From Pedosphaera sp. (GTDB lineage Bacteria; Verrucomicrobiota; Verrucomicrobiia; Limisphaerales; SIBH01): DNA of 64,000 nucleotides. The stretch is from contig JANOQV010000056.1 of assembly GCA_031414955.1 (NCBI GenBank), positions 1 to 64,000 of the forward strand, in the 5' to 3' direction. The notes below the pieces were generated by a model, which worked only from the letters and a program-made list of their open reading frames with translations, was not told where the DNA came from and ran no database searches. Below are positions 1,464 through 4,400 of this stretch, piece by piece; positions within the stretch are counted from its first letter, which is position 1; every line of letters starts with the position of its first letter. The translations under genes and the position numbers were made by a program.

Positions 1464-4400
1464 ATGACCAAGCACATGAACAAACACATACGAATCGCCG
1501 GGGCGGAAGATCCAAGATCCAAGATCCAAGATCCAGAGAAGCTCCAAGCACCAAGCGCCAAAGCGAGCCGCAGCCGGTTTCGGCAAAGTTTGGTGACCAG
1601 GCTTCACGCGCGGTCATTGGATCTTGGATCTTGGATCTTCTCTGGTGCTTGGATCTTGGTGCTTGGAGCTTTTTCGGTTCTGGCCGCCGACGCCACCGCC
1701 GAGATCAAAAGCCTCTCGCTCAACGGCGGTGTCGAGGACGGCACCGCCCGCCTGGTCATCGAAGCGAGGTTGAAACCGATCGGAGATGATCAAGCCAAAG
1801 TCATCTTTGCCAGCGCGGTGCAACACTCGATGAAGGTGTCCTTCGAGAAGATCACCCATGCCATCCGCGTGCAGGTCGAGGTGCTACAGGGCGAGCCGAA
1901 GGAGATTCCGCTCGCGCTGTCGGGCGAAGGCGAGGTGAAACAGGTCACGGGCGATGGCTTGCTCGACTGGAGCGTGCGGCAGCAGGATGCGAAGCGATTC
2001 CTCGTCCTGCGCCCGAAGAAAGCCGACCGCGCGGTGACGAACCTGTCCGTGATGGTCGCGGCGGAAACGGAATTGGGCGAACTGCCGAAGTCCATCACGC
2101 CGCTGGCACTGGCGTCGTCGCAGCCCGCGCTGGGGCACGGCTTCGTGCGCGTCGATGCGGAAGCGGCCTTGAGTGTCAAATCGGCGAATCCGTCGGGCGT
2201 GATCGCGGTGGAGGACAAGTATCTCCCGGAAGTGCTGCGCGGTGTAGGCGTGACGAACGATGAGCCGCTGGCGTTTCGTTTCCAAGGCGGAGGTTACTCG
2301 CTGCCGCTGCAAATCACCGTCGCCGATCCCGAGGCGCGGCGCGTGACGCTCGCGAATTTCAAACTCAGCGGCCAGCTCGCCGAGGACTCCGCCGCCTTCA
2401 CGCTCACGGCCACGGCACGGGTGAAGAATCCCAAGGGCGGCGAGATTGAACTGCTCTCGGGCAACGTGGCCCTGACCGGATTTGGCGACACGGCGGCGAA
2501 CGCTTCTCCCTCTCCCCTCAACGGGGAGAGGGCCGGGGTGAGGGGTGAGAATGCCGACGGCGCGCTTAAGAAGCCATCGGGAGCTGTGGGTGGCACCACC
2601 CCTCACCCTCAATCCCTCTCCCCGTTGAGGGGAGAGGGAGGTCCGCGCTTCGGCGTCTCGGGCGGGCGCATCAAGTTCGAGAACGGCCGCTTCATCGCCG
2701 TGTTCGACGAGCCGGGCGAGTATCCGATCCGCTTGCGCTTCAACGCCACCGTGCGCCATGCCGACGGCTGGAACAGCCTCGACTTCCGCGTGGCGTCGAG
2801 CGCGTTGCAGCCGGTCACACTAGCGGGCCTGCCGGCGGACACGCAGTTTCGGTTCAGCGGCGGTGCCAAGCCGGAGCGCGCGGGCGTGAACTTCGTCAGC
2901 TTCCTCCCCGCCGATGGTGCGGCGCAACTATCGTGGAAGGCCGCGCGCGCCGAGGCCGAAGGGAAACTTTTCTACTCCGCCGAAATGCTCGCCCAGATTT
3001 CCGTCGCGCCGGGCTTGATGCGCCAGTCTGCGCTCCTCGAGGGCAAGGTCATGCAGGGCGAACTCACGCGCGTCACGCTGCGGCTCATCGGTGCGGGCGA
3101 GGTCACCCGCGTGCAGGTCGATCAACTCCGTTCGTGGGATGTCGAGCCGATCGCGAACTCCACCGACCGCCGGCTCGTCGTGCAGTTCAACCAGCCGCAG
3201 AAGGACGCCTTCACGCTGCTCGTGCAAATGCAGTCGCCGCTGGCCGCGTTCCCGCAGACGTTCGACGCCATGCGCCTCCAGCCCGAGGGTGCGACGCGCT
3301 TCGCCGGTTACGCTCGCATCGTGAACGAAGGCGCGGTCCGCCTGGAAGTGGCCGGCGCGACCGGGTTGACGCAGGTGTCGCCCGAGCAGTTCCCCGAGAG
3401 CGACGTCACGCGCTCCGTGCTGCGCACTGATGCACGGCAGCGGTTCGTCTATCGCTTCTCCGGCGCGGACCACGCGCTGCGAATCGCGGCGGACAACGTG
3501 CTGCCGGAAATTTCCGTGTCGCAACTCATCGCCTACAACCTCGGCGAAACGGAACTGGCCATCGACGCCGAGTTCGAGATCGACATCCGCGAGGCGCCGC
3601 TACGCGAACTGCTCATCAGCGTGCCCAAGGGCTACGCGCTGGCCCGGCTCACGGCCGCAAGCATGAGCGATTCGGTGCTGGCGAAGGAACAGGACAACCA
3701 GCCGAACGTCGATCTGCGACTGGTCTTCGGCCAGCCCGTGAGCGGTCGGCAGGTCGTGGCGCTGCGGCTGGAACGCAACAAGGCGCTGGGTGACACGAAC
3801 TGGGTTTTGCCGCGCCTCGAAGTGGCGAAGGCCAAATCCACGCGCGGCCACGTCGCGGTCTCGGCCGACGCCGGCTTCCGCGTCACGCCTGCGACGACGC
3901 AGGGATTGACCGAGATCGCCACCGCGTTTTTCCCGCGCAAGCTGGCGAACATCCAGAGCGCGCTGCGCCTGAGCGACGCCGCGTGGCAGGCCACGATGCG
4001 CGTCGAGCGGTTGCCGCAGTCGATTCAGGTCGATGCCTTTCACCTGTTCTCCATCGCCGAACGCATCGCCTACGGCAGCAGCGTGATGAACTACCAGATT
4101 TCCGGCGCGCCGCTCGCGACCTTCCACATTGAGTTGAGCGGAGAGTACTTCAACGTCGAGTTCCTCGGCAAAGACGTGCGCAACTGGACGCGCACCACCA
4201 ACGGCTTCGAGATTCATCTGCACACGCCGGTCTCGGGCGCCTACACGCTGCTGGCGAGCTACGAGCGGCCCTTCAAGGGTGCGGGCGAGACGCTGGCCTT
4301 CACCGGCGCGCGCCCGCTCGACGCGCAGAGCGAGCAGGGCCACACCATCGTGGTCAGCGCCTATCAGTTCGACGTGAAGCCCGCGAACGTGTCGGCCGGA

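Follow-up and report, generated by a model that had tools for sequence, protein, structure and literature searches.

We consider it likely that three hairpins (A, B and C) in the window examined here are copies of a genome-wide family of heptamer hairpins located behind stop-coupled start codons, and that in predicted-exported genes the T/G-rich arm of such a hairpin supplies the translated hydrophobic core of the signal peptide, where it would have replaced the ancestral one. The window is the whole stretch of 64,000 nt of Pedosphaera sp. DNA that was analysed, on contig C56 of an assembly of 6.55 Mb with 62% GC. At the level of sequence comparison, it is well supported that a repeat has remodelled signal peptides already present, and in about a dozen predicted-exported genes an arm has likely taken the place of the earlier export signal.

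Hairpin A consists of an A/C-rich left arm (1507–1561, plus strand) with the structure (CCAAGAT)n-CCAGAGAA-(CCAAGCN)n, which encodes a polar and basic peptide, and a T/G-rich right arm (1617–1671, plus strand), which encodes the predicted h-region LDLGSWIFSGAWILVLGA. The arms are 55 nt long and 82% complementary, with a predicted RNA fold of -108.5 kcal/mol (z = -9.37). Hairpin B (41425–41560, plus strand) folds with z = -6.21 and hairpin C (53301–53471, minus strand) with z = -4.65, and for each of the three none of 200 shuffled sequences folded as well. When the three are aligned, CCAA or TCAA recurs every 7 nt and an invariant CAGAGAA core lies in the middle of the arms. Folds and alignment together bear out the original prediction of one shared element at three sites, with C as a diverged member that has units CCAAACA, TCAAACA and CCAAGCT, the core TCAGAGAA and a decayed right arm. 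A search of the whole window against Rfam returned no matches.

As was also first proposed, the start codons of the three genes abut or overlap the stop codon of the preceding gene, and the hairpin follows in frame in each case. Gene A starts with TGA-G-ATG at 1464, 1 nt behind the stop of a VWA (YfbK-type) gene (2–1462, plus strand), and hairpin A sets in 14 codons past this ATG rather than immediately behind it. The ATG of gene B at 41419 overlaps the TGA of its upstream gene (38399–41422, plus strand) as ATGA, and the ATG of gene C at 53475 forms the same ATGA overlap with a gene containing a Gfo/Idh/MocA domain (53472–54539, minus strand). The three host proteins are unrelated, as claimed, since their domains differ: the product of gene B contains prenyltransferase/squalene-cyclase-like repeats, that of gene C a neutral-ceramidase-like N domain, and that of gene A had no family match in Pfam or NCBIfam.

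The translations agree with the earlier description of a polar or basic arm followed by a hydrophobic arm and a cleavage-like site. The predicted leaders span 74 codons of the 2544-aa protein A (1464–1685, plus strand), 52 codons of the 381-aa protein B (41419–41574, plus strand) and positions 53284–53475 (minus strand) of the gene for the 509-aa protein C. Their N-termini are rich in K and R, as in the n-region of a Sec/SPase I signal peptide, yet 30–55 aa long. Their best 10-residue Kyte–Doolittle values (2.33, 2.32 and 2.77 for A, B and C) and uncharged runs (16, 15 and 18 residues) are those of an h-region. The predicted cleavage sites SVLA|AD in A and SAHA|AD in B have small residues at -3 and -1 and align with the sites of homologues with plain leaders; in C the predicted site near residues 60–63 is uncertain, and in B the residues D and E lie close to the site. 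Leaders of 50–75 aa (up to 140 in relatives) far exceed the usual length of a Sec signal, and we presume that they are cleaved. A check of RNA data gave one distant run sharing 5% of words, which over 38300–44400 yielded short, mostly foreign contigs and no joints.

A fourth fused hairpin, built from another heptamer unit (TGACGAA), lies at 11805–11950 (minus strand) and heads the ORF 11949–9406 (minus strand), which encodes PSCyt1 and WD40 domains; the original prediction missed it. This gene probably retains part of the old h-region (ILFLAFSAPA|AT).

The window contains further repeats. Palindrome pairs of the type CCCTCTCCCC...GGGGAGAGGG occur inside gene A at 2486–2660, where the pair is translated in frame into an insert rich in P, S and G, and at 5651–5779; the same repeat type is also present in leaders of gene B orthologues. 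A lone (GTCCAAG)n arm lies in frame within the cstA gene (26690–26721), and a lone (AGTCCAA)n array (38199–38231), for which a partner was not found, ends 13 nt before the start of priA (minus strand). Other inverted repeats with arms of 32–33 nt are located at or near gene ends (9146–9255 and 38341–38445). Within 28530–35799 an RHS-repeat gene has its 3′ part duplicated 2263 nt downstream at 90% identity, resembling an orphan RHS module, and two tandem paralogues with twin-arginine-like leaders (16699–19377) share stretches of 77–81% identity.

The distribution of heptamer repeats was surveyed in the whole genome. There are 348 arrays with period 7, compared to 17 with period 6 and 24 with period 8. 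Pairing of arms led to 160 unique hairpins, with an inverted partner found in 4 of 1629 cases in a random-placement control. Mapping with an HMM of the arms gave 291 matches at E ≤ 0.1 and 113 pairs, compared to 7 matches when the genome was reversed; merging both approaches resulted in 171 heptamer hairpins. The A-rich arm comes first in 145 of 162 calls. Another 267 arrays are single, mostly without a partner even under relaxed scores. The hairpins are small (mostly 60–200 nt), multicopy and non-autonomous and have terminal inverted repeats, like MITEs of the RU-2 or RPE type. They sit between or inside protein genes and not in 23S rRNA; 17 are inside called genes, of which 2 are perhaps fusions or artefacts of our home-made gene caller. 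Often the gap between two co-oriented genes is filled by a hairpin that begins at the upstream stop, an arrangement we refer to as a tight junction (85 cases).

Most copies of the family are not signal peptides. An ATG lies within 8 nt of the upstream stop at 53 of 78 tight-junction hairpins, compared to 1423 of 4489 gene stops overall. Among the 85 tight junctions of the merged set, 48 contain a relay, by which we mean a mini-ORF running across the hairpin to a stop no more than 8 nt from the ATG of the next gene, 12 are in frame with the next gene, 20 are neither and 5 lack a start. The relay ORF bridges the 30–60 codons between the upstream stop and the next gene's own ATG, and 23 of the 48 relays end as an ATGA overlap. 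Counted by frame, an end no more than 8 nt from the following ATG is seen in 36 of 52 first-start frames, compared to 5 of 78 control frames. In 24 cases ATGA flanks the hairpin on both sides, which translational coupling alone can explain. The original prediction overlooked this commoner fate, as well as the link to four-helix-bundle cassettes described below. Mycobacterial interspersed repetitive units (MIRUs) are likewise described as inserting at start codons, with an ORF whose coupling to the following gene has -4 spacing (PMC12548453). The position at the start codon and the coupled ORF make the present hairpins MIRU-like; the likeness is drawn from the described layout and concerns the way of working. 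The part of the MIRU description used here mentions neither heptamer hairpins nor signal peptides nor a cargo gene (PMC12548453).

The second fate is fusion. In 130 pairs of element and gene, the gene has its own ATG near the right arm in 99 and none in 31; the latter comprise 14 in which a stop interrupts the frame, 6 with an open frame that were set aside by eye because they start further along or lack an upstream start (C54, C97, C109, C117, C164 and C174), and 11 fused leaders. With gene C, whose ATG lies inside the arm, and one prepilin added to these 11 hand-picked cases, the set of fused leaders amounts to 13, all of which resemble signal or prepilin leaders by eye. In the prepilin-type protein (C249:6038-6127, L106) the heptamer hairpin forms the basic leader immediately before the FTLIE motif. 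The expected enrichment in exported proteins was evaluated with a home-made signal-peptide rule, which 11 of the 13 fused leaders pass compared to 6 of 79 own-ATG junction genes (p = 1.6e-8 by Fisher's exact test), a p-value that is partly circular because a longer window was applied to the fused leaders. The rule over-calls, as 1025 of 3296 genes pass and 4 of the 6 own-ATG passes look false by eye. The own-ATG junction genes are depleted in passes relative to genes with coupled starts (6 of 79 compared to 131 of 573, p = 0.001). Judged from these predictions, there is a strong tie between the fused copies and proteins of exported appearance. The tie is not absolute, because five in-frame copies precede own-ATG genes that do not look secreted (C172, C231:11715, C244, C306 and C308); these five, and the 6 open-frame copies set aside above, may be counter-examples.

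The original prediction held that any insertion of such a palindrome would produce an n-region followed by an h-region. This does not hold: among the frames of unfused CCAA-family hairpins 405 of 708 are open, and a positive n-part together with an h-like part is obtained in only 129 of 708. Hydrophobicity is higher in the right arms of 10 fused copies than in the 405 open unfused frames, with a best 10-residue Kyte–Doolittle value of 2.06 compared to 1.42 (p = 0.001) and an uncharged run of 15.5 compared to 10 residues (p about 0.001), as expected if a filter acts on fused copies. The 129 suitable frames show that raw material exists for the strongest form of the prediction, in which insertions turn cytoplasmic proteins into new exported ones. 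We regard this form as extremely improbable, since all repeat-free homologues with a clear N-terminus of the fused genes examined (11 of 13, all but C152 and C249) carry an ordinary signal-like leader, and none of them looks cytoplasmic. For these genes the origin of new export from cytoplasmic ancestors is rejected, and the part of the prediction that concerned the creation of exported proteins is unsupported. The part that concerned remodelling is supported, with the arm in the place of the h-region, the cleavage-like site where homologues have theirs and plain leaders in the orthologues that lack the element.

Leaders of the orthologues were classified by eye on translations, and the orthologues are kin and not independent events. 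For gene B, whose closest named homologues come from genomes labelled mostly Verrucomicrobiota, some of them Pedosphaera sp. and several with inconsistent labels, a heptamer leader is found in 9 of the 10 orthologues from the same genus; the units vary among them and one leader is decayed. An ordinary hydrophobic leader is present in G003 (MRIIFAVICLFAVAAFA|AD) and in the other 10 orthologues with at least 59% identity. Nearly all of 32 more distant rows also show ordinary leaders, the exceptions being one incomplete, one unclear and one heptamer leader already counted. For gene A, the right arm is kept as h-region in 3 same-genus orthologues (G004, G007 and G009), and ordinary leaders are found in 16 homologues from other families, the remaining rows being incomplete or internal matches. 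The leader of gene C is of the heptamer type in G008 and ordinary in G011 and 27 weaker homologues. For an M23 peptidase, 6 of 11 same-genus orthologues have the heptamer leader and 5 a plain one, as do the outgroups, and for C184:45157 there are 3 heptamer and 5 plain orthologues. C231 has the heptamer in 7 of 7 close orthologues (one reduced) and plain leaders in several distant homologues. Orthologue coverage was thin in some cases, with 1 of 5 genomes for the gene of the fourth hairpin (C56:11805), 3 of 5 for C193, 1 of 5 for C211, where the sole orthologue itself has a repeat leader, and 3 of 25 for C184:137777.

The position of the true start bears on how these leaders are read. In-frame TTG, GTG or ATG codons are present inside the leaders of A, B and C, and shorter true leaders are therefore possible; a start in the loop (for example the GTG that is codon 44 of A, or the ATG that is codon 21 of C) would give leaders of normal length, with the right arm still serving as h-region, the left arm untranslated and the hairpin acting mainly as RNA. 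We find a start in the loop unlikely. The frame is open from a stop-coupled ATG or GTG in 30 of 34 repeat-bearing orthologues (by a lenient stop rule, with one truncated contig among the misses) despite very different leader lengths of 35–140 aa, which favours the upstream coupled start. Moreover, gene B has no NTG codon between codons 1 and 30, and a start in the loop would lie within a fold of -70 to -108 kcal/mol.

Several leaders contain repeats of other types. Gene A in G003 has another repeat ahead of an ordinary h-region, gene B in G039 has a leader with another repeat type, and most orthologues of C261 carry apparent other repeats, with one being heptameric. In the C261 orthologues (L144–L153, orthologues of G000:C261:1286-2062) one leader appears to bear a different repeat family from species to species within the genus and is likely a landing hot spot. 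Such cases are compatible with the repeats being pure passengers, in which case the leaders would simply tolerate their landing and the arm peptide would contribute nothing to export; C152 and C211, which retain an apparent old h-region behind the arm, would also fit. We deem this account very unlikely, as in A, B, C, the M23 peptidase and C184:45157 the arm is followed by no further hydrophobic stretch ahead of the cleavage-like site, although homologues of these proteins look exported. In G007 and G009 gene A has gained additional other repeats upstream and the right-arm peptide stays; in G004 and G007 other repeats occupy the left half or loop of the gene B leader and the right-arm peptide is again retained.

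The turnover of the arms raises the question of RNA-level selection. Arms are complementary within a locus while the units vary by species: the match of an arm to its own partner compared to cross-species partners is 21.3 versus 13.3 for gene B, 27.8 versus 18.9 for C231 and, more weakly, 29.9 versus 27.1 for the M23 peptidase. The selected function could accordingly be control of the RNA, through RNase III cutting or stability of the operon mRNA as in 23S rRNA intervening sequences (IVS), with the signal-peptide reading merely permitting persistence; in Coxiella, RNase III cuts the 23S rRNA IVS, in which heptamer repeats precede the S23p ORF (PMC4990558). However, concerted arms would result equally from recent replacement or from copying of one arm to the other, and an arm has its best match in its own partner in only 5/10, 5/8 and 2/7 rows (one count for each of the loci B, C231 and M23). 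In addition, pairing is lost at B in G002, G004 and G007 with the hydrophobic peptide retained, and a cut within a coding leader would destroy the message. RNA control has, in our estimate, little chance of being the main function. In the tree of gene B, G003 with its plain leader groups with the heptamer-bearing G010 and G011 (support 100/99), so that the heptamer was gained repeatedly or lost again at this locus, and a single gain is not secure.

Heptamer arms are found at 3 of the 4 genes in this genome that encode a PF05635 four-helix bundle. One of these (C241:18056-18349) has exactly the arm family of A, B and C, with an empty copy behind it. Across relatives, inverted flanks are present at 28 of 31 PF05635 loci, compared to 64 of 930 cross pairs, and period-7 arms on both sides at 15 of 31 loci, compared to 0 of 30 controls. 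Inverted arms around a PF05635 ORF, similar to an IVS, are thus seen in the filled relatives, and the three copies in the window are empty. As far as the source consulted describes it, the Coxiella IVS (S23p, PF05635) shares with this family the terminal inverted repeats around a four-helix-bundle gene and the tandem heptamers; it differs in that the copies here are in mRNA operons, mostly empty and likely translated. A parallel layout occurs at GxxExxY (PF13366) genes, 3 of 4 of which are flanked by inverted 9-mer arrays (L005, L006 and L007).

These results suggest the following scenario. The hairpins, probably gene-less kin of the arm-bounded four-helix-bundle cassettes, would be mobilized by an enzyme and arrive behind operon start codons, where they are found. 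Most copies would persist out of frame by way of the 30–60-codon ORF that leads to the next ATG, along which ribosomes may be relayed. In-frame copies, as the enrichment suggests, may be tolerated mainly in the n-regions of signal peptides, where the extension is cut off. The old h-region could then be lost because the right arm reads as L/F/W/G/V/C-rich and takes over; the stages are seen side by side in orthologues, and their order is our interpretation. Finally, the arms may be rewritten in concert or replaced, and the pattern among species is one in which frame and hydrophobicity are kept. A more far-reaching and rather doubtful speculation is that S23p/Avd-like four-helix-bundle cassettes and empty hairpins constitute an active mobile system that targets start codons. 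Such a system would stay neutral to translation either through the relay ORF or through the signal peptide and would keep overwriting export signals in one set of genes; repeat DNA would then write, swap and revert the signal peptides of this genus time and again.

Heptamer repeats as such are known in cyanobacteria, where they are termed STRR. Inverted pairs of the heptamer GGGAATC near gene ends were described in Xanthomonas and Nostoc (Rehm 2015, PMC4692102). According to the available part of that work, these share with the present family the heptamer arrays, often in inverted pairs, near stop and start codons between co-oriented genes; they are mainly intergenic and G-quadruplex-forming, and translation into leaders is not mentioned in that part. 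Rickettsia palindromic elements are translated within proteins and the inserts are judged neutral (PMC2229807); in-gene palindromes occur in both systems (17 hairpins here), and the RPE, as presented in the portion of the review used, have no heptamer period. PARCELs were considered as a possible identity of the family and rejected, as they are a 25-residue repeat and a different thing (PMC2996958). The printed precedent is the RU-2/YPAL repeat in YPO1552 of Yersinia (Delihas 2007, PMC2759123; review PMC2229807), a 168-nt element for which the excerpted accounts give one main case, along with YPO2495, as a prediction only. In contrast to RU-2, the present hairpins have tandem-heptamer arms, occur in 13 genes of one genome, have repeat-free orthologues with plain leaders and use units that vary by species. 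In a literature search of limited coverage that excluded supplements, no paper was found that joins heptamer hairpins with signal peptides, or with PF05635 in mRNA operons.

The birth of new exported proteins is not what these data show. If the proposed reading is correct, this family would be a clear and many-times-repeated bacterial case of non-coding repeat DNA turned into a functional part of proteins, with the ancestral and derived states coexisting within one genus. In practice, annotation of such genes would misplace their starts and miss their export. The long-unexplained heptamer repeats of bacteria would gain a testable context in PF05635 cassettes, translational coupling and signal peptides.
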